Positions 11,371 through 64,000 of a stretch of 64,000 bases of DNA are shown here, in pieces. Location of the stretch: assembly GCA_965287045.1 (NCBI GenBank), contig OZ336880.1:43524001-43588000 (forward strand), in the 5' to 3' direction. How positions within the stretch are numbered: the stretch's first letter is position 1; each line of letters starts with the position of its first letter. Under the pieces are notes generated by a model, which was not told where the DNA came from, ran no database searches, and saw nothing but the letters and a program-made list of their open reading frames with translations. Made by a program: the position numbers and the translations under genes. This DNA is from Carcharhinus amblyrhynchos (taxonomy: Eukaryota).

Positions 11371-11454
11371 GCCCAAATCCATGTATCTGCACAGCTAGCA
11401 GTGATAGTCACTGAGCTGTTCATTCATTCTCCCCTACGTTCTCCAAATCTCCCC

Positions 11455-11625
11455 ATTGCCTGTTTGGGGGATGCCAGTCACACTTACCTGTTTAGGTGGG
11501 GGCGGTCAGTCAGACATTACCTATTTAGGAGGTCTGTCAGACATTGTCTGTTTGGGGGGGGTCAGTCAGACATTGCATGTTTGGGTAGGGGTGGTCAGTC
11601 AGATATTGCCTATTTGGGGCAGGGG
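11455..11625 (-). repeat. Inverted copy of part of the adjacent minisatellite (matches 11984-12154)
   Basis: The reverse complement reproduces the same succession of unit variants and spacers with a few substitutions. Confidence 0.9.
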
Positions 11626-11868
11626 AATGCCTCCCAACATGTTCCGATTCTTCCACAACATCTGAATATCACCTGCAATGTTTGCTCAATCCTAGAATAT
11701 CTAACTACCTGGCATTACCAATTCACCCCAATGCTGCAACATCCAGATTCCTTCCTCCACCGAAGCCTAATCCACCCCTCACAATCCTCAATGCCTGCAA
11801 TATTCAGATGCCCATCCCCCATGATACCTAATTCATCTCCTTGCCCCATCAGCTCCAACTCACATCCT

Positions 11869-12431
11869 AAAACAGGCAATGACTGACTGATCCATCCCAA
11901 ACAGGCAATGACTGACTGACACCTCTGCCCCAAACAGGCAATGACTGACTGACCTGTCCCAAATAGGCAATGACTGACTGAACCCCCTGCCCCAAATGGG
12001 CAATATCTGACTGACCACCCCTACCCAAACACGCAATGTCTGACTGACCCCCCCCAAACAGACGATGTCTGACAGACCTCCTAAATAGGCAATGTCTGAC
12101 TGACGGCCCCCACCTAAACAGGTAAGTGTGACTGACATGCCCCAAACAGGCAATGTCTGACTGACCTCCAAACAGGCAATGACTGACTGACCCCACTCCC
12201 TCACCCAAACAGGCAATGTCTGACTGACACCCCCACACAGGCAACGTCTCACTGAAATCACTCCCAAACAGACAATATCTGACTGGACCCTCCAAGCAGG
12301 CAATGTCTGACTGAACCCCATAAACAGGCAATGTCTGACCGACACCACCCCCCCCCCCCCAAAAACAGGTAATGTCTAACTGATCCTCCCAAATTGGCCA
12401 TATTTAATTGATCACCTGCCCAAACAGGCAA
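11869..12431 (+). repeat. Minisatellite: ~18 units of AAACAGGCAATG(A/T)CTGACTGA plus variable C-rich spacer (unit ~26-40 bp)
   Basis: Units read directly from the sequence. Degraded units reappear at ~13947-14027 beyond the SINE/LINE insertions. Confidence 0.92.
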
Positions 12432-16910: not shown

Positions 16911-18699
16911 TCTTGGTCCCCTCACTCCAACAGTGTTCCATTCACGATGCCCCGTCCCCCACTGCCACTCCTACTTGACATTTACTCCTTGACTTTCTCA
17001 GCCTGAAAATCCTGCCCAACTCTACCATCATTTTCATTAATGTACTTCCAGGAGTTGCAAACTGCCAAATGTTTTACGGGTACACTACATCTGTACTCCA
17101 AATCAAACTGGGTATTTAAACAAGAATATTTAAACTAATATGATCTAAGCTCTGGGACTAAAATCACTTTCTGATAACAGAAGGTGTGCTCTGTAACAAT
17201 TGTTAAACTTATTAATTGATGAGAAGTTGCTGCTTGACACAGCTGGCTATTCCATTAGTTTCCAGTCATTGACATTCACCAACAAGCCTGGATTTCACAC
17301 TCAGTGAGTAGTCAGAGGTTTTCATTGGTTTCAATCTAGTCCGCACTAGATTCAAAGCTACAGCTGATCTGAATGTGACAAAAAACAAAGGAGCTTCATT
17401 TCAGTGAGACCTAGACCTGAGATTGGGACAGAGATGTATTTTCCACTGAAGCAGATGGTATCTAAGAAACTCTTGCAAAAGGATTGCTTGGCATTATTTA
17501 GGTCTGAGTTGAAACAAAGCTTCAGCAAAATGAATTGCAATCACAGGGAGCTCCCTACGCCCACCCGATAAAGGATTGCACAGTAATTGACCAGAAAATT
17601 CAAACTTCCAGCGGGCAGTTGCCCTGCACTGGGAATCATGCAATACAGATTTAAATTGCAGATTTTGCCTCGTTCCAAGTCTTACAGGAATAGTCACCCA
17701 AGAAAAGCTAAAAGAGTTAAAACAACTTCTAAGTTCTGGGTAACTATAGTACAGATGATCCCCCACACCCCGACTATCTTACTGAACCTTCCAATGGACC
17801 CTGAATACTTTCCCCACCCCTGATTATCTCCCCATCTGACTACTCTCACCAAACACCCCCTCTTCATTGCCCAACACCCTGTCCCCATTAATCAATTCCC
17901 CAACTCTCACAATGATCATATATTGGACATGTAGCACATACTCCATTTACTTGACACTAAGGCCCAATTCATTCTCCTTTGGTGTGAGTGCTGTTGGCAA
18001 GTGCTGAATGTTGCAAGTACAATTAGCTATTGGGTAGCCGGCTGTCTAATCCTTCACCTTGGAGGCCTTAAAGTAAGCTGCAGTCCCCAACTGTGTGTCC
18101 TGATAGTCATTGCTACTGAGTACTGCCACAGGAGACTCAGTAGCAATGATGTATCTTTATGCTTGCACTAAACAGATGATTGATGTCAGGTTTAATAAAG
18201 CAAACACTATCACCACCTTTTCCATGGACAACCAGAAGCAACTGGTGCTTGCAAAGTAATAAACTAGAATACTGGACACTGGCAGCATCAGTGGAGAGAT
18301 AAACAGAGGTAACATTTCAAGTCTGTTAATATATTCACAGCTTATTAAGGATAATTTTAATATGGGATTTGGGATTCAACTGTGGGTGCACAAGTTTCCA
18401 GGGATCCCTGGGATTCGCCAGGGAAAGCAAGCAAGGTGTGAAGGCAACGGTCATTAAATAAATTACAGTCAAAAATCTCCGTAATTACTGAAACCTCAAA
18501 GCTGATTTCTGACCTTGTTGTGTGAAAAGTTTTTACACTCAGTAATTGTTTTAAGAGGTGACTTTCACAGCTTTGAATGTTTAGGCATCTGATCCCCACT
18601 TCGCAACTTTGACCCATCAGGTCATAATGGGTACACTTATGCTGCATTGGCTTGGACCTCAAGTGAAGACCAAGATGACAAGCAGCACCAGGAGAGGCA

Positions 18700-43925: not shown

Positions 43926-44023
43926 TAGATCCTTTAAATGTGTGCTAATTTTTGCATTGAACATAATTATTTTAGTGCTCTGTTCTAAAAATAAGCAGAA
44001 TATGTTTAGTTCTATAAATACGT

Positions 44024-44118
44024 GGTCTGAAGAAAGGTCATCAACCTGAAACGATAACCCTGTTTCTCTTGCCAAATGCTGGCTGACTGAAGTGCTCCCA
44101 GCATTTTCTATGTTTATT
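44024..44118 (+). mobile_element. Short Penelope-derived repeat starting with a hammerhead-like core
   Basis: GGT-CTGAAGA-A-AGGT-CATCA-ACCT-GAAA-CGA-TA-ACC followed by the family tail ..CCAGCATTTTCTATGTTTATT. Confidence 0.6.
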
Positions 44119-47100
44119 GCATAAACCCAATGCTGTCTTCCTGTGTTTACTGTACTATGTCAACTGTTAATTACTGAGAATCTATATTGTGGCTACAAAG
44201 TGATTACCTTTCTAAAACCATGAAGAACAAACACTTCTCCCAAGCTCCGAAAAGCAATTTATCTATTTTTCAGAGAATTTATATTGCTATCATTCCAGAT
44301 ACTGTCATTAGTAACTGGAGATGCAACATTCTTTAAGTGTTGGGCTAAATATAATACAATTTCATTTTTTAAAAAATCTAATTTAATAATCCAACCCTTC
44401 TCATCACCAACACTCGCATCCCCCCCCCAAAAAAGGTTAAATTAATCCTAATCATTAGAAATACGCATGAGCTCAAACAATACTTTTTTTCTGGGATATT
44501 CAAATTCAATATTTTCAAAATTGAAATAGAAACAATAGTCTCTATTCATTGCTCCACAATTTAGCCTGTTATTTGAGAGGGTTTTTTGTGTGCAGGAGAA
44601 TCCAAGGTACAGTACAAAACCTGAGCGTACAGCTTTTTCAGCAACTTTCAGCCATCTGTTGCTCAATACCTTATATGCATATTTTACAATTCAGGCGACT
44701 TCCACTCACTGTATCCCTCAGAGGACTCAGCTGTATTCTGGGATCAGAATTAAACTTGAGATTTTTCAAAGGGCTGAATTATAAAAAAAGTATGAAATGT
44801 AAATGTCAAAGATATGTACATTTTTAAATGTAACTGAATTAATAAGGTTTTTGTTCCACTATAGTGTTTCACCTGACTGCATCTCTCCCCTGTCTTCGTC
44901 TAGCCTTTATTAAAGAACAGCATTTTTTCCTAGATGAAAAAAGATTTATCTTAGTAGGGATTAACATCACAGATCTGAATCAAGTTATCTGCAATCTAAA
45001 CTTCTCAATCCAGCAATTGACAAGGTATTAAAATATTCAAGTCAGTGTTTCTGCTATTATGTAATAGTGATTTCATTTTCTAATATATACATTAATGCTC
45101 TGAGACTTCAATTTTTAAAACATATTTGATTAAAAATGACATTGGTGTGCACCTATATTAAAAGGCAAGCATGGGATGCACTGCGTTGAACCAATCAATA
45201 CTTGTTACTTATCAGTTTTAGTCCATTTAGGAACAGTAGAGAATTGGAAGGTTTTCTAGTGCAGGTAACAGTAGTTGGGAAAAACTGTACGTGCATTCAA
45301 AAGACAGTTTCAAACCCCAGCTTTGGCTGTCTTTTGACCTCTGCTACCCTCTATGGGTGAGTTTTGCCAAATGTCAGCAGAGCTGTTTTAGTTCACTTTG
45401 CAGGATTGGTGAATTCCACTGACAATATAGGTGGAAAGAAGATAGCCAGAAGACACCTCTGAAGGAAGACAGCCAGAAGATACCTCTAGTCTCCAATAAC
45501 AAAGTCACATTTGCATCCATTAAAGTATGCAAATTGTTATTCTCTTCTCATTTGTAAAAATGTGAAATTTGGATGGAGGGAAGAGAACACAATATATAGG
45601 GCACATATATTCAGGTCAAGTTTTCTCATTCTATAATATTTAGTACATAAATAATATTTAACAGCCAGCAGCAGTATCACGTGTTTTAGAATTTGAACAT
45701 GTATTTCTGATTCTTCTTTAAGGCCTCCACAAAATCTCAATAATGGCCAAATTTTAGACGTTATTGTGAAAGCTAGAATCTGTGAACCATTCCATGGTAT
45801 TATAATTTAAAAAGCTGTAGGGCGATAGGGCAATACTTGTTGTTGGTTCAACATTTTTTTAAAAAAGAGGGAATAGAAAGTAGCAGCAGCTGGAGTTGTA
45901 CATGTTTTCTTGCACAGATCATAATTAATTCTGTAAGTCAGGGCACATCTTCATTTCCTAAACTATGGAAATTGAGTCTTTAAAACCCTCAAAAGTGCAC
46001 AGTACTGTAATACTGTATTATAAAAACAGAACTGGGTCAGTATTGTGTCTTAGGCAGGCATCCAAAAAACTAACCAAATTACAAAGCTTAACTTGCTGAC
46101 AACAGTTTTTTTTAAATGAAACTGTACATTATTTAGCTGTAAACAGGCTAACCTTATGTAGAGGCATATGGTGCACATGCTTCTTTAATTAAAGACACGT
46201 ACTGATTTAGAAAGCTAAAGACCACATATGTCTTAAGAAATTAAGTATTTCCTAAGCTGTGAACAATGATTACTACGTTCAGTTTTACACATCTTTATTA
46301 ACTACATAACTAGTGTGGTCATTCCTACTCTAATTTAATGACAACAGTCGCTAACAATGATATCCTGTGTGAAATTACCAGATCAAATAAATCTAATTAC
46401 CAATTATTTAATGTCAGAATCTGTCTATGTTCCAAATTTAGACTGTTCATTGAGACTTTTTGAATTTATTTTCTTCAAATTTAGGGAACAGGAGTTTGGA
46501 ATGATTTTGTACCAACTGTCAATGCTACCCATGATATTTTTTATATACTCTTTCTTTCTTGGGATGTGGGCTTTGTTGGCTAGGCCAGCATTTATTGCCC
46601 ATTTCTACCAATAGGTCAGAGGATTACTCCTACAAGCCTCGTATTTCCACGCGCCCCCCCCACCCCACCTTCCAAATGAACCTTGATAATCCAACATAGC
46701 TCAAACACTCAAATTAGTGGTATAAGACAAGCAGGTCAGTTAGGGTACTTCCCCCACATCAAATTAGGCTGCTAATCTACAAATTACAGTGGCAAATGCA
46801 TTTTGCATTAATTTGGACCTGTAAGTATAGCAGCACTGCAGTACACAGCTAATGAGAGTTTTCAAAAAAGTTTTGAGATACAATAAAAAAAACTATTGTA
46901 TAATCAATTTTAAGTTGTGACCTAAAATTGCATAATGTTGAATAATAAAGAAAAAGTGCTTTTAGAAGCACTGAAATCATTTAAAGTACTTTCCCTGGAA
47001 TTCAAAATGATATTTAAAATACTGTTATCTAATTTCTTAGCAGCATTTGATGCCATTATGGGAACACAATCTTCCAACTATAATGTTTATTTCGTAGAGA

Positions 47101-47247
47101 AACAATTCACTTAAGACAACAATAAGGAATAGTTTCCCCCAAGATCTGTAGCAATGAATCTTGAGAAAAATATAATTCTCTTTACTCACTCCTGTTAGAA
47201 CACGGAGTCTGCAATTAGCAGATCAGTCAGGAGAAGGGTACAATGCA

Positions 47248-47424
47248 TCACAACTGCATCTTTCTAAGCATATCAACTGACACTGGTGGATGAAAGGTAA
47301 TGGTGTGATGACGAAGCCCATGAGCAGTCTTATAGCTCTTTCCACAGCGACACTTGAAAGGCTTCCGGACACGGGTTTGAGTACGATGGCCATTCTTGGC
47401 ATGGTATTTGATTCCATTAACATT
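47248..47424 (-). CDS. jazf1-like: JAZF1-family zinc-finger protein, terminal coding exon (177 nt)
   Basis: Acceptor TCTGTATTTCTGTTAG, then NVNGIKYHAKNGHRTQTRVRKPFKCRCGKSYKTAHGLRHHTITFHPPVSVDMLRKMQL*. Completes one C2H2 finger and encodes the last. Not in the ORF track (different frame from ORF 47223-47423). Confidence 0.95.
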   Translation of the reverse strand, partial: NVNGIKYHAKNGHRTQTRVRKPFKCRCGKSYKTAHGLRHHTITFHPPVSVDMLRKMQL

Positions 47425-50400
47425 CTAACAGAAATACAGAATGGTTAGAATTATCTTGAAAATCTGTTCAGCTACTACAATAAGTATATATTAACAGAAA
47501 TTGCATAACTATTGCATTTCTACCCAAGGTTTGGCTTACATTTCCAATTTTGTGTTCTTCAATATAAAATCAGTCCAATACCAGTAGGTAATAAACTGTT
47601 GTTGAACTAATTTAGAGATTATTAGTTTATAAAACCAGCAAGAGGTTAAAAATTATATCTCTTTACCTCTTACACTAAATATACATGTCAGCTGCTTTGG
47701 GTCTCATTTACAGAGCTTGTGTCAAATTATTTGGTTATTTCATTTGAGGCATATCTCCAAATAAAACTTAAATATATTAAAGTAGAAATATAAAAATTTC
47801 TGGTAATTGTAATATTCTTGAATTGATCAACTCAAGTATTACAAGTATTGCTAATTCAAAAAGCATGAAGAAGTTCAGAACAGCAGGGTGATTGGAAATT
47901 ATTTAGCTGATATAAAATAACTAATACATTTTTAATATTATTTCCACAGCCTGCCAGAAACAGTTCACTGTACGATCAAAGTTTTAAAACAGACATTTGC
48001 AATTCTTCATCTCCCATTCTCAAAAAGATCAACTTGTAAAAAGCTAATATCGTTTATCACTCCTCCCATTACACATTGTATCAATCATTACCAGTCTCAC
48101 AGCCAACAAGAGGTATAAAATTGCAGGAAGAATTTTAGGCATACATTATAGAAAAGGCAATTACATCAAAATGTGATCCTTACACACCATTTGAGATAAA
48201 TGATTTTGTCTTTTGATTTTCATTTTTTTTCCACAAGTAGATTTCTTACTTGCTTGCCCTTTTCCTCCCCAGGTATGTTTTGTGTTTAATATATTTAACA
48301 AGCAGTAATCCTGTCAACTCTGCAACACAGGGTTCTAATAGATCTAACTGTAGTTGTGGGTGGGCTAAACTCTGCCTCCAACTACCATAAAATACTTGGA
48401 ATTCTAAGCACCTCTTAACAATTATATTGTCCAGGAACCAGACGAAAGGATTAGGTTTCGCTGCTGTCAAAAAGGTATTCCAATTAACAAATTAATGAAA
48501 AACTGTAGTGGTTTTGATTTCCTTCCGACAAAAGTGTGTATTTATAAAATGGGCAGGAAACCACTGAAATTTGCAGTCAGTGACCAAATTGACTTGAATT
48601 TTCTAATCAGAAAATAAACATAGAAATAAAATGGTGGAGATTAAAACTAAATACCAAAATATATAATAATGGACACCATTTGAACTTCAGGCATTAAGTA
48701 TTTTTTTGATGTGTTAACAGATCACAAAAGGTTAACTGTTCCTTTGCCACAACTGGACTGAAATGCATGTTGTAGACAGTACCAAGCTGGAATTAGTGTT
48801 CGCTAAAGATTCTGTTGCCCATTGCATTTCAGTTGGTTTTTGGTTTTAAGTAGGAATAAATTTATAAGCAGTGTTTGCCAGAGTTGATACTGTTCATCTC
48901 GACAAAATACAGTTCACAGCCAAATATTCTGATGCTGTAGTCCTTGCACAACATAACTTGATGGCTGCTGCACATCCCTGCACAATATCAAAAAAAAATC
49001 ACTATTCCAAATGGTTATACCATAGCAGATATTTACCCATACTTCAAATTACACACACATAAATACGATCTTACTGGGCAATGTGGTGCAATGTTTAGTA
49101 AGGGAATCAATGTCTTTAGCAAAGAAAGAGAGCAAAGAAAAATTCAGGGAAGAGTAAAAAGGTGGAAGCATAAAGCAGACTAACTTTAGTAACAACGTGT
49201 GTGCAGGTAAGAATTAAAGCCTTTTAAAAAAGTTGTGTCTCAACTTAAGATAACTTAGCTGTTGTTGGTGCAATCATTTGATTAAAAATGAGCAAAATGT
49301 ATTTTACGCTTTCTGAAATAAAAACTCAGTGGGGAAATTAATTTTCTGTATTAAATGCAAGTTTCTGTTACAATGAGCCATGTTTTAGAAACTAATACAA
49401 ATAAATGCAGATCAACGCCAATTGTACGTGAATGACATTCTTGTAGTAAAAGTTATGTAGTAAAATTAACTACCTAGGGACCTTTTCATAATACCAGAAA
49501 TATTTTCAACTTGTTGGTTATAAAACCAAAATTCAGGCCAATATTAGCAGCACTAATCAGAAGGAAGTGTGCAACAATGACATTTAGTCAGAGCTATCAC
49601 TGCCTGAATGACAGACACTAAACATTAAACAAAGGAAAAACAACTGTGAATCTGTGGTCCAAGGAGCAGGTTATTAACATGAAAATTATTTACAGCTAAG
49701 ATTCTAATGTTACATGAAATTCCTGCAAATGTTTACACTGATAAAGTAATAAATTAAGATAGGGGTATACTTAACTAAATGTCAAATCAGAAATTTCGGC
49801 AAAACATAAATCAGGATTGAAATTGGAAAAGTTATCTTTCTAAAATACTGCAGTTAAAAAGTAAATAATTCTCAACACATTTATATGTTCATCAATTCAG
49901 TATTTGCTATGCTAGCTTACTGCAGTCAAATTCAAGCTTAGCTAATTTAGTAGATTTTTGCATTAAGTCTCGCTCCATACCACTACTTCTTCAGACACAT
50001 AATAGCAGCTCATCAAAAACAGCAAATTTGCTTTGCATTATCCCCTACAGAGGATCTGGTTTAGGCTTCCGTCTAAACCATTACCCTTTATTTGTTGTTC
50101 CCTCCATTGTATCAGGCATTCCAAAGACTATTAATCTACCGAGTCTGCTTGCTCTTTCAATAATGATGTTTGAGCAATTCAGCTGGACGGCTCTCGTGCA
50201 TCAGACATGGAGCCAGAAAGATTTCAGAATAACATAGAATAGCTTTGTTATACTGGTAATTAAGACAGGACTGACATTCAAACAGGACCTGGACAGGATG
50301 TGGCAAATTACTGTATTCTTTGTGTGAAAAGCTGTTCCCAATATGGTTTGTCTGGCCTCCAGGGAACTCATCATCTTCACTAACAGTCAGAATGGGATTT

Positions 50401-50624
50401 TGTACCCTCTATTCCCACTCCAAAACCTCATTCTAATATACATTTATGATTCATAGAAACACTGAGGAAAAGCTTGTTAATTTGTAAACTTGAGAAAAAT
50501 GAAATATCTGATCTTCGTTATATATTATGTATCGTGAAACAGTTTAAATACAAAGGCGTCACCTTTTAAGTGCATTTTTATTGACATTTCCAAGGACAGC
50601 TTGTTTGCTGGACACAATACGTAC

Positions 50625-50794
50625 CTTGTACCTCTTTTTACAGCCAGGTACAGGGCAAGCAAATGGCTTCTCATCATCCCCATTCAAGCACATTGAACTT
50701 AGAATAGTCTCAGAGCTAATAGCACTTTCTGTTGTCCATGATTCATCACTGTCGGAATCTTCACATTCAATTTCTTCCTCATCTAATTCACTGC
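50625..50794 (-). CDS. jazf1-like: JAZF1-family zinc-finger protein, penultimate coding exon (170 nt)
   Basis: TTTAG|GC acceptor and AAG|GTACGT donor. Encodes (G)SELDEEEIECEDSDSDESWTTESAISSETILSSMCLNGDDEKPFACPVPGCKKRYK; phases 1 and 0 fit both neighbouring exons. Confidence 0.96.
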
Positions 50795-50998
50795 CTAAAG
50801 ATTCAGGAAAGAAAGTAAATACATGGTCACAGTTACCTTTTTTTAAAAAGAAATCCATATTTAGGTGAATTTCTTTAAACAGAAGATTCCTCTTTACTTC
50901 CCCTCCCCTATGAAACCACTGTAAATATATAGCATTCAATATACACATAGCTAACACTTGTGTTTGGAACTGCCAAAGGCATCCTGGGTAATTAGCCA

Positions 50999-51130
50999 NN
51001 NNNNNNNNNNNNNNNNNNNNNNNNNNNNNNNNNNNNNNNNNNNNNNNNNNNNNNNNNNNNNNNNNNNNNNNNNNNNNNNNNNNNNNNNNNNNNNNNNNNN
51101 NNNNNNNNNNNNNNNNNNNNNNNNNNNNNN
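50999..51130. other. Assembly gap (132 N) inside the intron
   Basis: Run of N. Confidence 1.
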
Positions 51131-53199
51131 AATCATTTCAACTAGCAGCACACTAACCAAGCGACTGAAGCAAGAATAAACATTCAACAAGCACCACACA
51201 CAGAATACAGAAAGCTACAACGATGACCAAGGAAAAGAGTGAAGTGAAAAAACAGCAAATGGAAAAGAGAGCAGTTTTCTCTTTAAACAGAAAAAATAGA
51301 AAATCTTTCAAAAGGTTAGGGGCACAAAAGGGTACACGTACTGCCCACTTCACTTAGAAAGCCTCAATCAACTCAGATTTTATAACAGTCCAACAATGAG
51401 GTAATCAGTGAAGAATTCTTCTTTATGATTCACTACCTGAAAATGTAGAACCACAGTAATAACTTGTAAAACAGTAAACTACCCTTATTTTGTGCAGAAA
51501 GATGCACTGAAAACTGCCCAGTTAACGTTATAATGCAGTCTATAAATATTATTGGTGCAAACAGCCCATTTCCAAGCTCGGTTTACATGCACCATCATTA
51601 AGGTCCTATTGAAAGTCTACTGCAGTCTTGTTTTGAACACCAACCAAACGTTAAGGTTCAGTCTCACAACTGTATAAAGCGTCTCTAATGTTTCTTTATG
51701 CTAAAAGATGCATGGACTATTTCAGCTTTGCATATTCAGATGATAGAACATTGATACTCATTATTTTCAGACTCTAAACACTGAAGCAGTGTCAAGAATG
51801 CATCCATCACAAGGAAGCTACTGATGGCGATATTTTCAACTGCATCAGCAAATTTTGCATTTACAATTTCTGTAAGTGACATGTTTTTTATTAGACGGAG
51901 ATCATTTTCAAACAACAAGATCATGAGTCTGATGCTTTGTTGCACCTCTTAGCAGCCTACCTAATGACAGTAATTAACAGTCTGCAATTAGCATCCACTT
52001 CAGAAGACATTTTAATGTTAATTTGCCTTCTCTAATGTGATGCACAGCTGTGCAACAAGATGCATGCCATGAATTGTACATGAAACTGGGAGCCTGATCT
52101 TTCTGGCAAAATCTAAGTATGGTTTAGTATAAAAAAAACTCTGCTAATACAGATTGTTAAAAAGTATCATCACAATACCAGCCAAATAAGTTCTGCTGAT
52201 ACTGTGTTTTTAATATTTCTTGCAAAATAGGTGACTCATTAACTTGTTAATTTCAGTTGGAAATCATATTTTTTGGATTAGAAATTACACTGTTCAGAAC
52301 ATGCTAAACCTTACAGTACCTCATATACAGCTTTGCGTGCGAGTAACTGTGGCTGCAGCTTTCAGCATAGCTATCACGTTACAACCTTATTAAACTACTA
52401 AAGAGCAGCACCAGGTCATCCCCAGGGCTCCCATCTGCCCCACACAGTGCACCTCCCTCCAGGAAAACACTTTAAACACAACCCTGTGCTGAATAAAATG
52501 GTCTGCTTTAAATGATCAAGTTATATAAAACAATTTAGTAAAATGTTACTTTCATATTTTAGCCATTGTGATCAAAGAAGATACTATGTAATCTGCATAG
52601 TATGTTGAGAATCTGAATATACTGCATTTAGTTGAGTGGTGAATACCTTAGGTTTATATTATTTGCTTCAAATAACTAGTTACACATTCATTGAAAGCTA
52701 TTTTGTGGAGGAGGAGGAGGAAAAGAGTCTAAATGTGTATTTGATTCTGTCTAAAGTTTATGACTTGGAAGTTTAAAAACGTGAATACTGTAAAACAGAC
52801 ATCTGATATCAAGCATTTTTCTCACTCTCATCACAAAAAAATACATGAGAAAATAAAAGCTGGAATGATTGCAATGACGCCATAAATCCCACAGGAATGT
52901 CTGCCATACGCATAAACATTGTAATAGCTGCTCGACTCTTACTATATTCCACGTTTAGTATGCATGCAATTAAAAATGCACAAACCAACATACCTCAGCT
53001 GTGGTAAAACTTCCATTTTCCTGGATTAACAATGGATCCAATATGAATTTAGGGGGCAGCGCAATATATGTATTGTCTCCTTTAAGACCAACTGCCATTA
53101 TTAAAGTTTGTTACAACCAGTACTCTAATTCAATAATCATTTTTTTTTGGCTCAGCTCCTTCAATATTTCTTTTCAGGTCCTTCATCCCCACAACAGTA

Positions 53200-53350
53200 C
53201 CATAGAATCTCTACAATGCAGGAGACCATTTGGCCCATTAGTTTGCACTGACTCTCCAAAAGAGCAACCCACCCAGGTTCATCCCCACGTGCACTATCCC
53301 CATCACCATATGGATTTACCATGGCCAATCTACCTAACCTGCACATCCTG
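53200..53350 (-). mobile_element. HE1-type SINE 3' fragment, followed by an L2-like 3' fragment (~53350-53700, +)
   Basis: CATAGAATCTCTACAATGCAGGAGACCATTTGGCCC..GGCCAATCTACCTAACCTGCACATC, then CCTTAAAACCCACCTCTTTCACCAAAGCTTTGG..ATGTTAAAGG..GCTATAAA. Confidence 0.75.
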
Positions 53351-54119
53351 GTAATTGCCTCAAATCAAAAATCCTTGACGTAATAGCAATGTATGGCCTC
53401 ACTCCTCTTCATCGCCACCTCTCTTCCAGTTCCAAAATACCCAACATCTCTCTAAATTCATTTCCTGACTCCAGCCTCATTAATCCTCCACGCCTCTTTG
53501 CCCACATGGAGCCAAGGATTCAATCTTCTAGGTCCCATTCTCTTGAATTCCTCCATCTCCTTCTTTTCAAGATATTCCTTAAAACCCACCTCTTTCACCA
53601 AAGCTTTGGTCTTTCCCTCCTAATCTCTACTTTCCCATCCCTGTAAAACACCTTGGAAGATCTATGTTAAAGGAATGCTATAAAAGCAATCCATAGTTGT
53701 TTCCCTTTTGCTTTCTTGACCACAGGAGCAGCATGGCCAAATCGCTCATTCCAATGAAATTATATTAAAATCAAGGCTCACCAGCATTCATTTAATTCCT
53801 TTACCAGCAAGGCAGGAAATACAGTTAAAATTACTTCCCCAAAATAAATAAATCTACCATCATTTATAGTGGCCTAGGAAGCAAATTTGTTTGTAGAATC
53901 AGCCTCATTAGCACTTAGGAAACTAAAATATGTTTTGAAAGGTACACAGGTTTTGCTGATATTTCAATATTTGTTCCTTCAGGAAATCAGCTTGACTTAC
54001 TCATACCCATTTAAAATGCATATTTATTCAAGGTTGAGGTAAATTTATCATTGACAACATTACCCAAACCTGGCAGCCATTAGGCAAAATGTAGTTGTTG
54101 TTTTAAAAAGAGTACCAAC

Positions 54120-54316
54120 CTGTTGGTGTTCCACTGCAGGCAGAAGAGGATGGTGTAACTGGTGGCGTCCCTGGAAAAGCTGAACTCCCATTGCCAGGGT
54201 GAGGTGATGCAGGTGTGCCCCCTCTTCCCACAGGACTGGAAAGGGCTGGGGTTAACTTAGCCTGATGTCTTTTTCTCATCTGCTCACGTTCGCGGCGGGC
54301 AGCATCAGTTAGAAAC
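54120..54316 (-). CDS. jazf1-like: JAZF1-family zinc-finger protein, internal coding exon (197 nt; equivalent to JAZF1 exon 3)
   Basis: TATTCAG|G acceptor and CAG|GTTGGT donor. Encodes (R)FLTDAARREREQMRKRHQAKLTPALSSPVGRGGTPASPHPGNGSSAFPGTPPVTPSSSACSGTPT(G); FxTDAARRE and TPPxTPSSS...TPTG match JAZF1. Upstream exons not found in the window. Confidence 0.93.
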
Positions 54317-56529
54317 CTGAATAGGTTCAGGAACGTCAATAAGAAAAATGGCTATATGATTACTGGTTGTGAAGACCAGGCCACAAATTCCTGCAGCCTA
54401 CTGGCTACTTTTAATATTAAGGTACTTACTGCATCTGCAAATAGAGGTTAAACTTGAAAGATCTTATTACAAGTCTGTGGGAGGCCCATAGCTTTGCTCA
54501 TGGACTCTGGGGATCACCACTTTCAAGGCAAGATGAAACAAAACAAGTTCCAAAATACCCACAAGCTGTGTGCAAGAGTTTTAACTGGATTAACATTTAT
54601 TGACTATTTAAGCTTTCCTCTATTTTGCTCGAGGACAAAATAAAGAAGTTCAAACTCGAGTTGTGGCACTGATAACTGGACCTCAAAAGTAAACATCAAA
54701 ATTTCAACTACTGTAATCTTTTTTCTTCATGTTTGCCTGGGATATTTATGTTCCTACCTCAATGGAAATTACATTCTGATCTCATGCAACTATCTAGTCA
54801 GTTATCATCTGTAGTTTAAACTGTTAGATCCTTGCAAGAAAAAAAACTTAAGGGTTTATGCTGAGTTGGCATTTTGTATTGATTTTATGATACACAGGTA
54901 TTATGATTTATAGAGTGGCCATGTCAGTTTAACAAGCTGAAGGACACACAATAACTCCAGCATCATTAAAATTCAGAAGCCTCTGGAGCTAACTTGGTAC
55001 ACAGTCATTCAGTACATTTGGACAGCAGGGGCCCTGTGCATGTGGGATATCACCAATTCTGTAAATAAGCTTACAGTAAATAAGGCTAAGCTTTACTCTG
55101 GGTTGAGGAATGTAAAGCAGGGAGGAAATCTTATTTGTCACTTATAACTGGTGACATATCTATCCTTAAAGAGTGATAAACAATAAGGATTTTAATTACA
55201 GATCATAAATGGACAAAAGGCCATTTTGTGATGTATCAGAGACCTCTATGGGTCATTGTGAATCATGACAAATATGCACTTAATTCAGTCAACAGTACTG
55301 TCCAATTGGTTATTTTTTCTAATATCTTGTATAATTATATTTAGAAGGGGGAGGTTCATAATGAGCTGTGCATTTTTTTTCTGTTTTTTGCAGTTAGTGA
55401 ATAGGAGAATAAACCATATGGACCTGTCAAGCCTGTCCACCATTCAACACAATCATGGATGATCTTTGGCTTCAACTTCCCTGAGATCAAAAATCTGTCT
55501 ATCTCAGCCTTAAATGTACTTAATGATGGAGTATCCATAACCCTCAGTTGTGAGGAATTTCAAGGCTTCACAGCCTTTCTCTTCATCTCAGTCCTAAATT
55601 ATTGTCCCCTTACCCCGAGACTGAGCCCCCATGTTATAGATTCTCCAACTCAAGGAAACAGCCTCCCAATGCCTATCCTGTCAAGCCCCCTCAGTAGATT
55701 GCACAATTCAATTAGATCACCTCTCATTCTAACAAATTCCAAGTAATTCAGCCTCTCATCATGAACATTGGCCATACTGCCTTCAATGACAAGTATATCC
55801 TTCTTTAAATATGGAGACCAAAACTGCACATACTCCAGACGCTGTCTCACCAAACCCCTGTACAACTGTAGCAGGACGTCTTTATTCTTGTTACCCCATC
55901 CACTTGCAATAAAGGCCAACATGCCATTGACCTTCACTGTTGCTTGTTGTATAGGCATGCGAACTTTCTGTGGATCTTGTTTAAGCGCACCCAACTCCCT
56001 CTGAACATCAGCAAATTTCATGCCTCTTAAAAAGAATTTTGCCTTTTTATTCTTACAACTAAAGTAAATAACCTCACACTTGCCGACATTATAATCCATC
56101 TGCCACTTTGTTGTCCAATCATTTAACCTGTCCATACCTTTTTGCAGACTCTTTCTGAAAGGGAAGTAATATTTAATTAGTTTATTCGGGAAGTGACAAG
56201 TAGATCTGATGTATTTGTAATTCCAAAAGGTATTTGACAAAGTGGTACATCATAGATAACCACAAAATATAAGATTTTGTGTCAGGAATACCATATTAAC
56301 ATGGATAAAGCATTGGTTAGCTAACAGGAAACAGAGTAGGGATAAATGGGTCATTTTCAGGTTGGCAAGATGTAAGCAATGAAATGCCACAGAGATCAGT
56401 GTTGGGACATCAATTACTTACAATCTATATCAATGACTTGGATGAAATGACCAAATGATGGGTGCGAAATTTGCTAGTGACACAAAAATAGTTAGGAGAG
56501 TAAGTTGCGAAGTGGACATAAGAGCCTGG

Positions 56530-58057
56530 AGTCAGAGTTTCCAATTATCATAAGTGCCTTTTAAGAGTGCAAGCTAGTATGGGTGAAAGCCTACGGGCCA
56601 GATTTTACCAATTGGAGGCTAAGTGCTGGATCTGGACGTCTGTGCCCGGAATCCCCATTCCAGCGCACCCATACGCTTTTTGCCGGCTCCGGTCCAGTTG
56701 CGCTGTGGGCGGCGCTTAGCGCTGCCGGAACGGTCAGAGCTCTGAACTGCGCATGCGCAGTTCAAAGAAAATCTGAAACAGCGCACCCACCTGAAACAGA
56801 GGGGCGGGGGGGGGTGGTGGGAATGAGCCTGCAGGACCTTCTTGGCTTTCCCTTCCACTGGCATCTGCCGGAGGGGGGTGGGCTCAGATGGATCTCTGGT
56901 TGGGGAGGGGGGTGGAGATTCTCCCATGTCCATCCTCCCCCCCATACTCCACCACCAACTCCAACCCCCCTCCCCACCACCCCAACCAGAGATCCATCTG
57001 AGCCCACCCCCTCCTCTGGCAGACGCCAGTGGAAGGCCAAGAAGGTGTTGCAGGCTGTCCGAGTGCAGTAAGAAGTCTCACAACAACAGTCCAACAGGAC
57101 TTTAACCTGGTGTTGTGAGACTTCTTACTGTGTTGACCCCAGCCCAACGCCAGCATCTGCACATCAACGAGTGCAGGTCAGAAGGACGGTGGAGGGAATC
57201 AAGGTAGGTTGGGGGTGTGCTCTGCCGAGGGGGCCCTCATCCACCCCCCATGGCCTCTCATGCCCTCGCAGCCAAGATATGGCACTTCCATGCCCATTCA
57301 TTCATTAAATATCATGTACAATCAAAAGACACCCCAATGACAATAGAATCTATAAACAAAGCTTTAAAAAAATTGTTCTTTCCTTACTTTTCACTGCATT
57401 AACAAAATCCTTTTACTACAGGACAACAGAAGTGTCAGTTATCCAGTAATGACAGCAGAAACAGCAAGCACTTGAAATTCCTTAACCTTGTATAAATAAA
57501 CATTGTGCAATTGGCAGTAGAGGTCAGAGAGTTCACACTGACAATCAAGTAATATTATGCTACAGCTCATGTGTTTTAGTACTCTGATAAATGTCTGGTC
57601 CCTCAACCAAGACTGTATAATGAAGCTTGGCTAAGTCCAGAAATCCACTACTTTGTTGAAACACCTTGAAAAAAAAGTAATGAATGAATAAAAAATAATT
57701 TTAACAAAACGCATCCTATTGTCACAATAGTTCATTGGTTCTCCACAGTGTATAGTGAGTCAATGGACATGGAAGTGCCATAGTTTGGCATACGGGGCAA
57801 GAGGATCCAAGGGGAGCTGAGTGTAGGGTGGTATGGCTGGCAAGGGATGCATGGGGATTGAGAGGTTTGAGGCCCTTAAATTTTTCATTATAATAAGGCC
57901 AAAGTCCCATGGCATTGAGATGGGTTGTCATCCAGCAGCCCCTCTGGCTTACTTTGACCTCTTTCGTAGGTCGGCTGGCTGGACTGCAATAAAGATCCTG
58001 TGAGGTTATTTTACTGACTTCTGCTACCCGCCTTGGTGATGAAAATCCAAGCCAAGG
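56530..58057. mobile_element. Probable non-autonomous DNA transposon(s), Harbinger-like termini, with internal inverted repeats
   Basis: Interrupts the plus-strand CR1. GGGCCAGATTTT at 56595 and GAAAATCCAAGCC at ~58041-58053. Internal IRs 56828-56905/56980-57055 and ~57271-57298/57764-57789. Confidence 0.55.
57069..57167. mobile_element. ~100-bp inverted Penelope-like insertion with 9-bp TSD
   Basis: CAGTAAGAAGTCTCACAACA / TGTTGTGAGACTTCTTACTG inverted pair plus terminal ..GCATCTGCACATCA. TSD CGAGTGCAG at 57060-57068 and 57168-57176. Confidence 0.85.
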
Positions 58058-58374
58058 GAGTCTGCAAGGGGATATAGATAGGTCCAATGAACAGGCAAAA
58101 AAATTAGGAGTGTGAGTATAATGCAGGAAAACGTGAAATTGCTATTTTGGCTGGAAAAAATAGAAAAGTAACATATTATTTAAATTAAGAGAGATTGCAA
58201 AGGTACCAAGGGATAAGGTCCCCTGATACATTAATTACAAATGGTTAGTATGCAACTACAGCAAGTGATTAGAAAATGACGTGTTGTCACTTGTGGCAAG
58301 GTGAATGAAATATAAAAGTAGGGACATTTTCCTATAGTTGTACAGGGTATTGGTGAGACGTCACCTGGGCTACT

Positions 58375-58560
58375 TAAGGTGGGTGTCTTTCAGGTCAAAC
58401 CAAGTAAACAAACTTAAATTACATTCGGACAAAGAAAAAGGGGGCGGCTCCCCAAAAGGAGGGGGAAAGCCTCGAACAGAAACAAAAAGTACAAAGGAAA
58501 CTTAAGACACGTCAAATCAAAATGTGATTGTCAGGGTCTATAAGGCACCTCAGCCCCTTG
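58375..58560 (-). mobile_element. Short insertion within CR1, possibly a Tx1/L1-like 3' end
   Basis: Non-CR1 segment between CR1 'HLGY' and 'AVQRKF' homology. Family assignment is tentative. Confidence 0.4.
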
Positions 58561-59758
58561 AATTATAAGGCAGTTCAGAGAAAGTTCTCTGAAATGTTCC
58601 TGGGATGAGTGTGTTGTTGTATGAGGAAAGGTTGGCAGATTTGGCCTGTATCCATTAGAGTTTAGAAGGGTAAGATACGATCTTATTGAAAAATACAAGA
58701 TCCTGGGGATCTTGACAGAGTGAATGCTGAAAAGACATTTCTACTTACGGGAGAAACCAGAATTAGGGGACACGGGTTAAAGCTGAGAGATCTACCATTT
58801 AAGAGGGAGAAGAGATTTCGTTTTTCTTTGAGTGGTTCCCCAGTGAGCACCGGAGGTAGGTTCGTTGAATATTTTTAAGCCTAAGTTAGATAGGCTCTTG
58901 ACTGACGAGGTAGTCAAAGGATATAGAGGCGGATAGAAAAGTGGAGGCCAAAATCAGATCAGCCATGATTTTATCAAATGCCGGAGCAAACTTGATGAGG
59001 CGAATGTTTTACTCCAGCTCCTAATTTCTATGTTTGTAGGTGTCCTCCTCACAGTTTGCATTACCAGCTAACTTTGATAGTCAGCAAATTGATACCTCAC
59101 TCTCTGTCCCCTGATCTAAGTCTTGAATATACATTGTAAACAGCTGAGGTCCCAGTGTTGATCCTTACAGCACTCCACTAATCACAATCAACTTGAAAAT
59201 GCCATATGTATCCATATTCTTTGCCTCCTGTCCATTAAACAATCGTCCATAAATATTAATATATTATCCCCAAATCCGCGAGCCAATCTTGTACATTAAT
59301 CTTTTGTGTCACACCTTATTGAATGCCTTTTGGATATCCAAGTATACACTGTCTACTTGGATATCCAAACTCTGTCTGGTTCTCCTTTATCTATCCTACA
59401 AGTTATATCTGCTTAGTTACACCCCACTGTATTTCAAAGGTTATTGGAAATCAACTAATAAAAAACTATAACCTATTGTACTTCCAATGAGACTGAACTT
59501 TGTCAGGTTGCAAACATGAGCATAGCAAAACCATGCAGCGATTGTAAACAAGAATAGGGGACTTTAAATGCATTGGGGTGTGCTGTGGCAATACAAATTG
59601 GTGAGGACAATAAGGGCATTTGGTGACAAGTGAGTAGAATTTGGTGAGGACAGAATGTAGATGGGAGAATTTCAGTTAGGTTGAAGTTTATGTATGGTAG
59701 AGCTCAGTAGGCCTGCCAAAATCTAACCCACCTGATAGAAACCTGTCAATAATAGAAG

Positions 59759-60066
59759 AATAAAATCCCTACAGTACAGGAGGCCATTCAACTGATCAAA
59801 TCTGTATCGAACACAATCCCACCTAGGCCCTATACCCATAGCCTCACATATTTACCCTTCTAATCTCTGCAAAACTAGGGTCAATTTAGCATGGCTAATC
59901 AACCTAACCTGCACATCTTTGGACTTTGGGAAAAACCGGAGCACATGGAGGAAACTCATGCAGACACAGGTGCAAACTCCATACAGACAGTGACCCGAGG
60001 CTGGGATTGAACCCGGGTCCTTGACACTGTGAGGCAGCAGTGCTAACTACTGTGCTACCATGCTGC
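59759..60066 (-). mobile_element. HE1-type SINE, full length
   Basis: GGGATTGAACCCGGGTCC (B box, reverse), GTGCAAACTCCATACAGACAGTGACC core and ATCCCTACAGTACAGGAGGCCATTC tail. Flanked by probable old L2 sequence. Confidence 0.92.
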
Positions 60067-63000
60067 GCAGTGATGATAGCATGGCTAAAGGTTCCAACAG
60101 CCACAAGTGTTAAGTGGTGAAACTGAGCAATGTTATGAAAGTGAAATTAAACAGTTCTATTAATGCATGGCATTTGAAGATTTAAAGCTCAGTTGTTAAA
60201 TCTTAAAGGCACTGAGGTAGTGCACTGCTGAGCAAGCCGATTGTGGGGGGGAGGTGGCAGAACTGAGAGTAAGAATGTTGAGTTTTTGGTGGGAGCTGAA
60301 CAAGGAGGCTTCAGTCTTTCCAATAACGTGATAGAGAAAATTTTGACTAACCCATGATTTGATGCTGCACATTAATCTGATGACAATGATTACTGAGAGC
60401 TGTGATTAGTTACAAATCAATAGAGCTGGGCATCATTTGACTATATTTAGAAGCTAATTCCATAAGAATGAACAACATGAAGGCGGGAAAGAATGGAACT
60501 TTAAGGTGCAGTGGAGCGTACTATGTGGCGCAGAAAGGAAATGTAAATGATGATGTATTATCTACACAGAACAACAATTTTCTAGCTCCAAAACATTGTG
60601 CAGCTGAAAATCCACAGTCTTGGGCCACCTCCTCCAGTCATATGCAAAGTTAGTACAGTCAAGAGAGATCATTTGGTTTGCATGACCCAGTCGAATACAC
60701 ATACCACTATGAGCACACTTTATGTGCCATCTTCACCTAGAAGATGGCAACTTATGGTGGAAGTGTGCTGGTCCAGGAGTTGGGGGAAAGAATTTTAATC
60801 AGTTCTCTTTGTAAGAGGGTTGCGTTTGAAGCCATTTGGTGCCCTGACATGATAGTCTCACTGGTGTATTGGCCGGCAGTCACTCCTCACTAACCGAAAG
60901 AACAAGGATATGGAAACTCCCCCTGCCCTTCGTTGCAGGCAATGTTTGAGCACCCTGTTACTCCATCCCCTAGAATGTCAAGTAGGTATGCCCTTGTTAG
61001 GCTGGGAACAAGTGTCAGTAGTGCAAATCCAGCCATTCAGACACATTCCCACTGAAACTCCATCAAGACTGTAATGTAGTGTACATTTTCAGCCCTTTTT
61101 ATCAAGGAAATAAAGGCTCCCCAAATGACCAAACTAAAATGCATAAAAAGTAATATATGCCAATTTTTTAAAATTTCAGATGATCACCCAAGAGGTTTTA
61201 CCTTCCCCAAAATAAGATTGTTCACCTGAAGGCTACCTCTCGCTAAGCAAAAGTAAGTGGGGCTTTGTAAGAACTATTCCACAAATAAAACTAAGTTCAC
61301 GCACCGCATTTACAGAATTTTGAAAATTCCCTCAAGTTATTTCTAAACTTTCAAATTCAAATTCAAAACGAAATAAATTACAATCACAGTAATCATTTGA
61401 AGCATTCAAGGAATTTGAAAGTGCTTCCCCTTCCCACTTACATTATGAATTTTGCATGGAATTCCAATAGTGACCTGTAGTACATGTTTCTACTAGGCGG
61501 TACATGTAGGAGGCAGTCATTCTCACTAGACATCTAGCTACAGTGCTCGAATCTCCTGCAAACTAATAGGGTTGGCCATGATAGTATAAATGCCAATATG
61601 TGCCTAGCTGAGTTCTGGTTGATTGACTGATCTCTGAATACATACTGCAAAACTTCCATAAAACCACAATGCCAATGCCACAATACATACTTCTCAGATC
61701 TTACTGTGACTGGCAGATTGAGTGGACTGCTGGAGAATGAAAGAAACATTTGGCGCCAAAAGTTGGCTGCACAATTTCCCGTTGTTTCTGCAACTAGAAA
61801 AATGGCACTCAATTCTAATTCCATACAAAGTTTTTCTAAAAGCTTTTTTTTAAAAAAAGACTTCAAATCAAAACTGGCACATGGTTAATTTTGTTTTGCC
61901 CCATCCAAGTTTAGAAAAAAAGCTGTAAAGTAAGACGTTCTATACAGAAAGTCAGCCCGATTTCTTAAGCAACCACAGGAAAAAAAAAGCGTGGAAATAA
62001 GCAAAAATAGGGGTCTTTTTTGAAGATGTTTCGTTCTGCAGCTGTTCATCATGTAGGGACAGGAGCTACTTTCCAAAATACCAAATTAGCACTGTAAACA
62101 TTGAAATCAGACCTTTCAAAATTCAACCTATAGCCCAATTTCTCTTCGATCTTAGTTTAATCTCAATTCATCAATAATGTACACTTATTATGGGATTCTG
62201 ACAGCAAGCTACAGCTTTTGATAAATTATATATCTCAAGCCAGATTTAAAATTTGAAGCCCAAGTGCTAATTAACTATACAGGCCTAGTTAATAACGAGA
62301 TTTCTTGTTGAGAATCTGATCACAGCATGGGCATCATTTGTCAAGAATGCTCAAGTCTACCTTAGAGACCAGTTTCTGTAATTCTCCCATGCCTACCATA
62401 TGTAAAATTGGGATCTTTGTTTCTATAATAACCTTTTATTAGGGAACTGACATAATGATTAAGCTCACTGAGACACATACAATGAATTAGACGATTACCC
62501 TTGCTGCTTTAAGCTACTCAGAATTGCAGCAAGACAAAATAATTAATATTGAATTTTAATTTGATGTGTTCCACATTTAAACCCCAATTTGCAAAGTACA
62601 CCTGGAAAGCTGCCACTGTTCACTCGCAGTTTAAGCTGATGAAAAAAAGGCTCCTGCAGTTTTAAGTACAGGAGTACATAACGCACAATGCTTTACTATG
62701 GAGAAAATATGGACAAAGTAACTACTGAAGCCTGACTTTACAGTCTTCCTACAACATATATACAGAAATTTTTAAGCCATTTATAAAGAATGTTCTGTGT
62801 CAACTGGTTTAGAAAAATAAAATCAAACTCCTTGTACTGCTTTTTAATGTTGATATTGAATATAGAACAGTACAGCCCAGGAACAGGCCCTTCGGCCCAC
62901 GATGTTGTGCCGAACAAATGATGAAATTACTTGCATATATTTATTAACTCAATGTTATCTTTGCAAATGTTTCACATTTCACTAATTTTATTTTAAAACG

Positions 63001-63694
63001 GTGGACATATTTGTCAAATTGATTTGAATAGGACATCAACATCAAACTTCAATTTTCAGAAGTTTTATTCTAAAAATGATATTTAACGTGTGACCAAATT
63101 CTAATGCAGTGCACGTTCCACTTTGTCTCACGAAAGATCAACCCTGGATGAATAGCTTGCTTAAAATTATATCACTTGTGTTTGACACATACCTGCATTT
63201 CTTGCATACCAATTATTGAGCTTTAGACTCCCAGACATGGATTGAAAAGATGCATAATCATGCCTCTTTTTGAACTGGAAGATACATTCAGGTCAGCTAT
63301 TATTTTTAAGGATGCAACTTCCCTCAAAAAACAAATTCCAGGTGCATTGAGGATTACTGTTTACAGCTTTAAATGTCTTATTTATATTTCCTGACAAAAT
63401 GGTAAGTAATCATTGGGCATGCACTATTGAGAACTCTCACAATGTCATTGCTGAAAGCAACATATGTTGAAACAGCATGTATGATTTTTCCCTAGTTTAA
63501 TACATAAATGAATAAGAAACAGAGAATGGTTGTGTGTGTGCGCAAGCTAAACAGCATAGTTTGTTGAGGTATGGTATGGAGTAACAAGAAGGTGGGTTCA
63601 TTTTGGTTTTTTTCTACATTGAAAGGCCTAAGTCCTGGACATGGAATTAACAGAGAGTCAAGAATCTCTGAACCCGGACTAGATGAGGGAAAGA

Positions 63695-64000
63695 CAGTAC
63701 AGGAGGAAACCATTTGGCCCTGCTGTCTCTCCATGGAGCAATCCAACAGTCGTTTTCCCCTGCTTTATTACCATAGCTGTGTAAGTTTATTTCCAAGTGC
63801 CTATCCAATTTCCTTTAGAAATCATTCATCGTCACTAGTCCACCATCCTTGCAGATGGAGAGTTTCTGCATGGTGTGTAAAGTTCTTCCTCACATCCCCC
63901 TGCAACTTGCCAAAAATCTTAAATCATAGAATCAGAGTGCAGAAAGATGCCAATTGGCCCATCAAGTCAGCAACAATCCCATCCATGCCCGATCCCTGTA
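63695..64000 (-). mobile_element. Old CR1 3' fragment followed by an HE1 tail running off the window
   Basis: CAGTACAGGAGGAAACCATTTGGCCC..AAGTGCCTATCCAATTTCC..AAGTTCTTCCTCACATCCCC, then CATAGAATCAGAGTGCAGAAAG..GGCCCATCAAGTC. Confidence 0.7.

Follow-up and report, generated by a model that had tools for sequence, protein, structure and literature searches.

An intact JAZF gene beside a HoxD-type cluster in the shark Carcharhinus amblyrhynchos, with a candidate enhancer shared with JAZF1

The window analysed here is a stretch of 64,000 nucleotides (nt) from the shark Carcharhinus amblyrhynchos (C11:43524001-43588000 within a genome of 2.92 Gb, in which C2, C3, C9, C18 and C27 are other contigs), and its minus strand carries the last three coding exons of a JAZF-family gene that is almost certainly Jazf2, the HoxD-linked paralogue of JAZF1 produced by genome duplication. 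An earlier sequence-only reading had described three exons of 197, 170 and 177 nt with canonical splice sites and an open frame, and had quoted a rewritten peptide from the first of them; all of this is present, the peptide at window position 54285, and inspection of exons 3-5 shows AG acceptors, GT donors, compatible phases and a terminal TGA. The three exons are real and intact, but they are not the whole gene, which has five coding exons (1 and 2 lie outside the window) and occupies 126 kb in all (Table 1). Spliced together, all five form 732 nt that encode 243 amino acids with no internal stop, a short run of N within intron 3 affects no exon, and exon 1 is CpG-rich (GC 0.56-0.71, CpG observed/expected 0.63-0.78). 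The product matches PF17017 (zf-C2H2_aberr) at 32.9 bits against a cut-off of 27, and PF00096 above its cut-off; the Cys and His columns of its three C2H2 fingers, one N-terminal and two C-terminal, are intact in the alignment, and by this finger layout and the five-exon structure it belongs to the JAZF/Sfp1 zinc-finger family.

Exons 4 and 5 each have two matches in the genome, their own locus and one at C2:54.43-54.44 Mb (exon 4 at C2:54444805, 84% identical; exon 5 at C2:54434401, 88%), so that the second, more JAZF1-like locus for which a translated search had been proposed does exist, and the window gene is not the only JAZF locus. No third full JAZF gene appears among 26 genome matches at expectation values (E) up to 1, and the sole extra strong match is a short insert on C3, to which we return below. 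The protein of the C2 locus is identical to a named shark JAZF1 (P0314) at 242 of 243 residues, to bowfin, frog, reptile and mammal JAZF1 at 226-228 of 243, and, throughout positions 129-243, to pika JAZF1 (P0320); the Jazf2 protein shares 178-184 of 243 residues with the named shark, bowfin, frog, reptile and mammal JAZF1. The two genes of this shark have the same coding-exon lengths (115/73/197/170/177 nt), canonical splice sites and agreement in all four intron positions, and their proteins are identical at 178 of 243 residues, exons 1-5 contributing 30/38, 17/25, 33/65, 48/57 and 50/58. The last exon had been estimated to differ from human JAZF1 at about 8 of 58 residues, the very count obtained here against the JAZF1 of the same genome, and the 197-nt exon had been called strongly rewritten, in accordance with the 32 of its 65 residues that differ. 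The linker at residues 76-128 holds 29 differences in 53 positions, zinc fingers 2-3 only 3 in 62, and for the paralogues as a whole dN is 0.165, with synonymous sites near saturation (pS 0.745). JAZF1 (TIP27, HoxA-linked) and Jazf2 thus have in common the 243 amino acids, the five exon lengths, the three C2H2 fingers, PF17017 and the TR4-contact helix, as well as their orientation to their own Hox cluster and an element in intron 2, whereas the JAZF1 gene extends over 260 kb in this shark against 126 kb for Jazf2, and adjoins a SKICH gene where Jazf2 adjoins Lunapark and ATP5MC/ATF2-type genes instead.

The neighbours (Atp5mc3, Atf2, Evx2, HoxD and the paralogue numbers) are named from family match and position, and family matches cannot tell ATP5MC1, 2 and 3 apart, nor ATF2, ATF7 and CREB5. 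The 150 best of 383 homeodomain candidates include three clusters, each of 11 homeoboxes, at C11 42.89-42.98, C2 53.73-53.84 and C27 38.24-38.41 Mb, and around both JAZF loci the gene order and orientation match. By comparison with the human HoxA and HoxD flanks, we take C2 to be HoxA-EVX1-TAX1BP1-JAZF1-CREB5 and C11 to be HoxD-EVX2-LNPK-Jazf2-ATP5MC3-ATF2. The flanks predicted for Jazf2, Lunapark to the left and ATP5MC and ATF2-type genes to the right, were both found, and the window gene therefore lies on the HoxD chromosome between Lnpk and Atp5mc3/Atf2, and not in the HoxA-linked position, tail-to-tail with TAX1BP1, of a JAZF1 orthologue. That TAX1BP1 exons are lacking near the window gene had already been remarked: a SKICH search gives 6 matches in the genome, none of them on C11, and SKICH matches flank the C2 copy; nor was any Tax1bp1 or Hibadh exon matched on C11 by the translated open stretches of at least 30 amino acids from the unmasked C2 region. 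The ATP-synt_C family search gave 0 matches on C11 and 3 on C18 and C9, the exons on C11 having been recognised as stated in Table 1.

Table 1. Positions of the features discussed (without a contig name, positions are those of the window)
Feature	Position	Strand	Remarks
Jazf2 coding exon 3	54120..54316	-	197 nt; end of TR4-contact helix, then paralogue-specific Ser/Pro/Gly-rich linker
Jazf2 coding exon 4	50625..50794	-	170 nt; acidic tract and first half of zinc finger 2
Jazf2 coding exon 5	47248..47424	-	177 nt including TGA; second half of zinc finger 2, zinc finger 3, C-terminal helix
Likely long 3' untranslated region of Jazf2	44000..47247	-	tiled by contigs (RNA origin guessed); several AATAAA/ATTAAA signals
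Part of Jazf2 intron 2	54317..64000	-	whole intron 2 is 14,392 nt
Paralogous conserved non-coding element, candidate long-range enhancer	62056..62465	.	410 bp, Jazf2 intron 2
Jazf2 exon 2	C11:43592709-43592781	-	right of window end; located with full-length relative as query
Jazf2 exon 1	C11:43697636-43697750	-	right of window end; located with full-length relative as query
Homeobox cluster	C11 42.89-42.98 Mb	-	11 homeodomain matches
Evx-like homeobox	C11:42,999,507	+	homeodomain match
Lunapark zinc ribbon	C11:43,087,983	+	only match in search
ATP synthase subunit c exons	C11:43,747,261 and 43,751,733	+	motif scan and PDB match
ATF2-type exon	C11:43,802,030		23/23 residues identical to human ATF2
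bZIP exon	C11:43,879,942		
Gene order on C2	C2		11-homeobox cluster (-), Evx-like homeobox (+), SKICH exons 54.30-54.33 Mb (+), JAZF1 (-), bZIP exon 55.09 Mb (+)

Elasmobranchs are not known to have a HoxC-type cluster, and no fourth cluster of 11 homeoboxes, of HoxC type, was seen among the top 150 homeodomain matches. The distance from the HoxA-type cluster to the start of JAZF1 is about 850 kb in this shark (C2:53.84-54.69 Mb), as in the mouse, which suggests that the spacing of 50 kb in teleosts (PMC3873244) reflects shrinkage in the teleosts and not expansion towards the tetrapods.

Trees were made of 35 and of 17 proteins, the rows hand-picked from several hundred retrieved and the smaller tree rooted on three invertebrates. 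In both, Jazf2 stands in a clade with its chimaera, shark and ray orthologues (support 100/100), the stem of which measures 0.24-0.26 while its internal branches are very short, and the protein of C2 joins the JAZF1 of shark and chimaera (96/97 and 97/97). The order in the 17-row tree is first the hagfish, and then Jazf2 against all jawed-vertebrate JAZF1 (85/95). The window gene therefore falls outside jawed-vertebrate JAZF1, and forcing it alone to join shark and chimaera JAZF1 is rejected by the approximately unbiased (AU) test (p-AU 0.006). Three observations would have spoken for JAZF1, namely a sole locus, a grouping with JAZF1, and Tax1bp1 and Creb5 as flanks, and none was made; the second locus, the tree and the neighbours all agree with the earlier interpretation of the gene as Jazf2.

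Within the cartilaginous fish the gene is strongly conserved, from the chimaera through to sharks and rays. Its protein is identical to the chimaera orthologue at 234 of 243 residues, and of the 9 differences 2 fall among the 53 positions of the linker 76-128, where JAZF1 of shark and chimaera differ at 5 (small numbers in both cases); as the linker has been nearly frozen since the split from the chimaeras, the rewritten exon represents an old, fixed divergence and not decay. There are 39 residues fixed in 11/11 Jazf2 sequences and absent from 10 JAZF1 references, many of them, two new cysteines (123 and 139) among these, in the stretch 73-139. The database sequence P0008, under which Scyliorhinus canicula and Cetorhinus maximus are among the species entered, is identical to the protein, and nine other full-length orthologues are 1-9 residues away from it; indeed, the cartilaginous-fish proteins called JAZF1-like (P0008, P0005, P0018 and others) show no difference in kind of sequence from the Jazf2 of the window, although the database entries do not bear the name Jazf2 and those of the chimaera and the whale shark are labelled plain JAZF1. 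In the skates (P0013, P0014, P0009), Jazf2 has Cys for Pro at 207, just before zinc finger 3. The hagfish Myxine has two JAZF proteins, of which P0186 is conserved and P0053 very fast-evolving; at 65 sites where the paralogues differ, P0186 agrees with Jazf2 at 18 and with JAZF1 at 20.

The 410-bp element of intron 2 has its partner at C2:54501191-54501603, in intron 2 of JAZF1 and on the same strand (72%, E 3.7e-49), and the genome-wide search, which skips very common words, gave two matches from two candidates, itself and this partner. It is thus a non-repetitive sequence of two copies in matching places, that is, a paralogous conserved non-coding element; the Jazf2 copy has 9-12 stops per frame, and no Rfam match was obtained in the window. 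Conserved TAAT cores are present, along with a conserved 12-nt block that resembles a HOX13 site. When 894 kb from C11 was compared against 760 kb from C2, 34 locally single-copy pairs were obtained, of which three are JAZF exons and about 29 are weaker or non-collinear; among the non-coding pairs that are collinear and on the same strand, the strongest three are found immediately past the Evx-like genes (E 3e-18), some 60 kb on the far side of Lunapark (E 3e-56) and within intron 2 of both JAZF genes (E 3e-49). Two other candidates for Jazf1/Jazf2 non-coding pairs, at C11:43599722 and at window 17565-17835, were discarded as repeats (1022 and 385 candidates genome-wide).

Besides the intron-2 pair, the two collinear non-coding pairs common to the HoxD and HoxA flanks, C11:43150436-43150731 with C2:53989330-53989607 (76%) and C11:43004691-43004876 with C2:53950164-53950350 (72%), probably correspond to published EVX1/EVX2 pairs, and they are located in places where pairs of that kind were to be expected. 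The paralogous elements of the EVX1/EVX2 block (PMC3595034) are likewise non-coding blocks of two copies in the HoxA and HoxD flanks; supplementary table 2 of that paper holds three EVX pairs, just downstream of EVX or in the intron of another gene (chr7:27.59 Mb), and none of the human pairs in that table, in the portion available, is assigned to JAZF1. Of what has been found here, the intron-2 element is most likely the part that may be new.

JAZF1 is a subunit of NuA4/TIP60, a corepressor of TR4 and, in low-grade endometrial stromal sarcoma, the fusion partner met most often, and a conserved twin with a rewritten linker, in which fingers and TR4 helix are preserved, is a probe of its NuA4-binding parts versus those of its turnover. 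By analogy, we favour with moderate confidence a Jazf2 that would act as a JAZF1-like nuclear adaptor for NuA4/TIP60 and TR4 with retuned turnover, descended from the early vertebrate genome duplications. In the predicted model, of which only local features of order and disorder are used (single chain, pTM 0.21), finger 1 is followed by a long helix at 53-82, a disordered stretch at 81-154 and fingers 2-3, and residues 81-136 have pLDDT below 50. Residues 51-75 of human JAZF1 bind the ligand-binding domain of TR4 (PMC9943680); among the contact residues within 52-69 in the list of that paper, 11/14 are identical between Jazf2 and mammalian JAZF1 and the remaining changes (T54S, V56I, M65L) are conservative, and Jazf2 matches the peptide of PDB 7xva with E 1.8e-7. 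The corresponding helix of Jazf2, at about residues 51-75, would probably bind the ligand-binding domain of TR4/TR2 in the human manner. Human JAZF1 is also a stable partner of NuA4/TIP60 (PMC9296003; bioRxiv 10.1101/2021.07.30.454360), and its residues 1-124 bind EPC1 (PMC9296003), so by the same analogy we think it fairly probable that the N-terminal half of Jazf2 would bind the complex through EPC1.

Turnover is the step of which we are less sure. In human JAZF1 the docking motif for p38 lies at 77-89, and TPPVTP at 109-114 is a degron for FBXW7 (PMC8955265). In Jazf2, Leu86 of the docking motif has become Pro and Thr109 of the degron Ala, both fixed across the group, and one TPPVTP is retained at 113-118, a possible shifted degron; the motifs that would make a JAZF1-like p38-FBXW7 substrate are, as a set, not found in the Jazf2 sequence. 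Perhaps these changes, with TPPVTP kept, alter the phosphorylation-driven degradation by FBXW7, a suggestion that we advance tentatively. Several points weigh against the adaptor as a whole: all its functional steps rest on human JAZF1; within the fragment that binds EPC1, exon 3 has only 33/65 residues identical to JAZF1; in the rays a residue that forms a hydrogen bond with TR4 is changed (D67E); and the linker differs between shark and mammal JAZF1 at 12/53 positions, being the fastest part of JAZF1 itself, so that its divergence need not be adaptive.

The last point belongs equally to another explanation, according to which Jazf2 is biochemically interchangeable with JAZF1, was retained through split expression or dosage, and bears neutral changes in its linker. 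The near identity of fingers 2-3 and the conserved TR4 contacts agree with this, as does a linker that is predicted to be disordered and drifts in JAZF1 too, and the apparent loss from bony vertebrates (PMC9976460) suggests that the protein is dispensable; nevertheless, the linker is nearly frozen against the chimaera (2/53, against 5/53 in JAZF1, small numbers again) and two motifs whose function was tested in human JAZF1 are changed, and we regard the explanation as rather unlikely. Less likely still is a new role, in which NuA4 binding would have been lost, or a partner found only in cartilaginous fish acquired, through the changes of the linker and the N-terminal part. The long stem branch, with hardly any change after it, speaks for this reading, and so do the 39 fixed diagnostic residues with their new cysteines, but the helix has been kept and so has finger 1, exon 1 being identical at 30/38 residues, and many of the residues of Jazf2 type are found in the hagfish as well and may therefore be ancestral.

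As regards the origin assumed for the adaptor, the gene could instead be a duplicate of JAZF1 that arose only in the cartilaginous fish and moved beside HoxD, and two results of the trees, taken against an ancient paralogue, lean that way: when the whole Jazf2 clade is forced together with shark and chimaera JAZF1, the log-likelihood is 11.3 lower and the grouping is not rejected (p-AU 0.179), and the monophyly of JAZF1 is supported by only 85/95 and 56/86 in the two trees. Moreover, among 409 scored proteins those of Jazf2 type are 17 named ones and one unnamed fragment, and 17/17 of the named are from cartilaginous fish. Since the tree leaves such a late duplication unrejected, the ancient origin is carried by synteny and by the shared intronic element: the position and orientation are an exact mirror, in which Hox, the Evx-like genes, the bZIP exons and two more non-coding pairs are collinear; besides, synonymous sites are saturated, the best tree unites all jawed-vertebrate JAZF1, and a mouse jazf2 pseudogene has been reported near atp5g3 and atf2 (PMC9976460). 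All this makes a lineage-specific duplicate very improbable. As for a diverged JAZF1 orthologue or a decaying pseudogene, a better JAZF1 on C2 (242/243 to P0314), the rejected grouping with JAZF1 and an intact frame, 234/243 identical to the chimaera, refute it for practical purposes.

Jazf2 had been supposed intact in chondrichthyans and decayed or lost in most bony vertebrates. The first part holds, with intact copies across the cartilaginous fish; for the second, the retrieved protein lists (the best 120 of 354, 150 of 1631 and 120 of 186) together with the mouse pseudogene of one paper suggest an absence from bony vertebrates. Two candidates for relics, of pig (P0102) and orangutan (P0114), were rejected, having 0 and 2 residues of Jazf2 type against 16 and 15 of JAZF1 type, and a conger-eel fragment (P0327) has 3 against 5. 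A paper of Acemel et al. (2016, Nat Genet) is said to describe Jazf2 as intact in the elephant shark and pseudogenised elsewhere. The existence of Jazf2 is, in any case, already known, through the JAZF1-like entries of many sharks and rays and through the name jazf2 in print, in a paper that treats jazf1/2 as a gene family and places the mouse pseudogene with atp5g3 and atf2 near HoxD (PMC9976460); the shark copy occupies the same position, that of the posterior regulation of HoxD, but is intact and under constraint. No functional study of the Jazf2 protein or of the intron element was found in literature searches, whose coverage left most subscription papers outside.

Apart from its protein, the body of the Jazf2 gene could perhaps host regulatory DNA for the Hox region, and the 410-bp element would be a candidate Hox enhancer that predates the duplication. 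In the mouse, those limb enhancers of HoxA that make the strongest contacts are situated within Jazf1 (PMC3873244), and in pufferfish JAZF1b is co-expressed with HoxA genes under the 5' landscape (PMC3897358). Carried further, the idea would be that the element is a long-range enhancer older than the split of HoxA and HoxD, and that the mammalian gene desert beside HoxD is in part a husk left by Jazf2, retained for the enhancers it holds once a protein that was a twin of JAZF1 uncoupled from p38-driven degradation had disappeared. We consider this doubtful, and the limb enhancers of mouse HoxA and HoxD, which have no obvious common sequence and for which independent origins were favoured (PMC3873244), speak against it. 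If it were true, the posterior appendage landscapes of HoxA and HoxD would come in part from one ancestral enhancer inside Jazf and would not be independent inventions; the shared element makes such a common origin testable, and the locus shows what occupied the distal part of the posterior HoxD landscape before the apparent loss of the gene in bony vertebrates.

Transcription would very probably begin at the CpG-rich start, head-to-head with the ATP5MC gene, and give a spliced mRNA with a long 3' end. Contigs of four sequencing runs, whose origin from RNA is a guess, were aligned at the locus, and those from three runs of three studies pass through exon 5, stop at 47426 and continue for 47-68 unaligned letters. 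That stop corresponds to the exon-5 acceptor plus the AG common to the end of exon 4 and the end of the intron, and the contigs thus break as expected of a spliced transcript, from which we infer the join to exon 4. It counts against this that the three informative runs are from related species and of guessed RNA origin. The closest run, X1 (pieces more than 99% alike), has no contigs across the exon-5 acceptor or in the greater part of intron 4, from which nothing follows; in run X2, pieces fall within intron 4, so this run contains DNA or pre-mRNA, and relative to the window its changes in exon 5 are synonymous (2/2), with 11 changes in the adjoining 253 nt. Within the presumed 3' untranslated region, long pieces of window 44000-46260 are 90-97% identical to contigs of related species, and these pieces extend more than 1-3 kb beyond the stop.

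In the short insert on C3 (C3:36414371-36414664, 294 bp), 85 nt from exon 1 (98%) abut precisely on a segment of intron 1 (145 nt, 100%), and the junction is an AG acceptor 42 kb into that intron. The insert looks like a Jazf2 RNA that was alternatively spliced and recently retro-copied, which would imply transcription of Jazf2 in the germ line. A third piece of the insert, considered as a spliced exon, lacks an AG acceptor, so that only the first junction represents splicing. The insert terminates in a nearby repeat-like tail that contains short tandem repeats, as if it had been captured by a long interspersed element (LINE) that recognises 3' tails. The intron-1 segment corresponds to an alternative exon, C11:43655028-43655172, which has an in-frame TGA in this shark, while an 18-residue insert at the same site is open in annotated isoforms of Heptranchias (P0006) and Amblyraja (P0009); it may be a poison exon, or else a conserved element that becomes an exon only on occasion.

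Two repeated regions complete the description of the locus. Tandem arrays with units of 28-33 bp occupy window 11454-12346, and just inside intron 1 of Jazf2, at C11:43695834-43697334, lies a G+C-rich (about 0.8) tandem repeat of units of about 35 bp with G-runs, which is low in CpG and could form G-quadruplexes.

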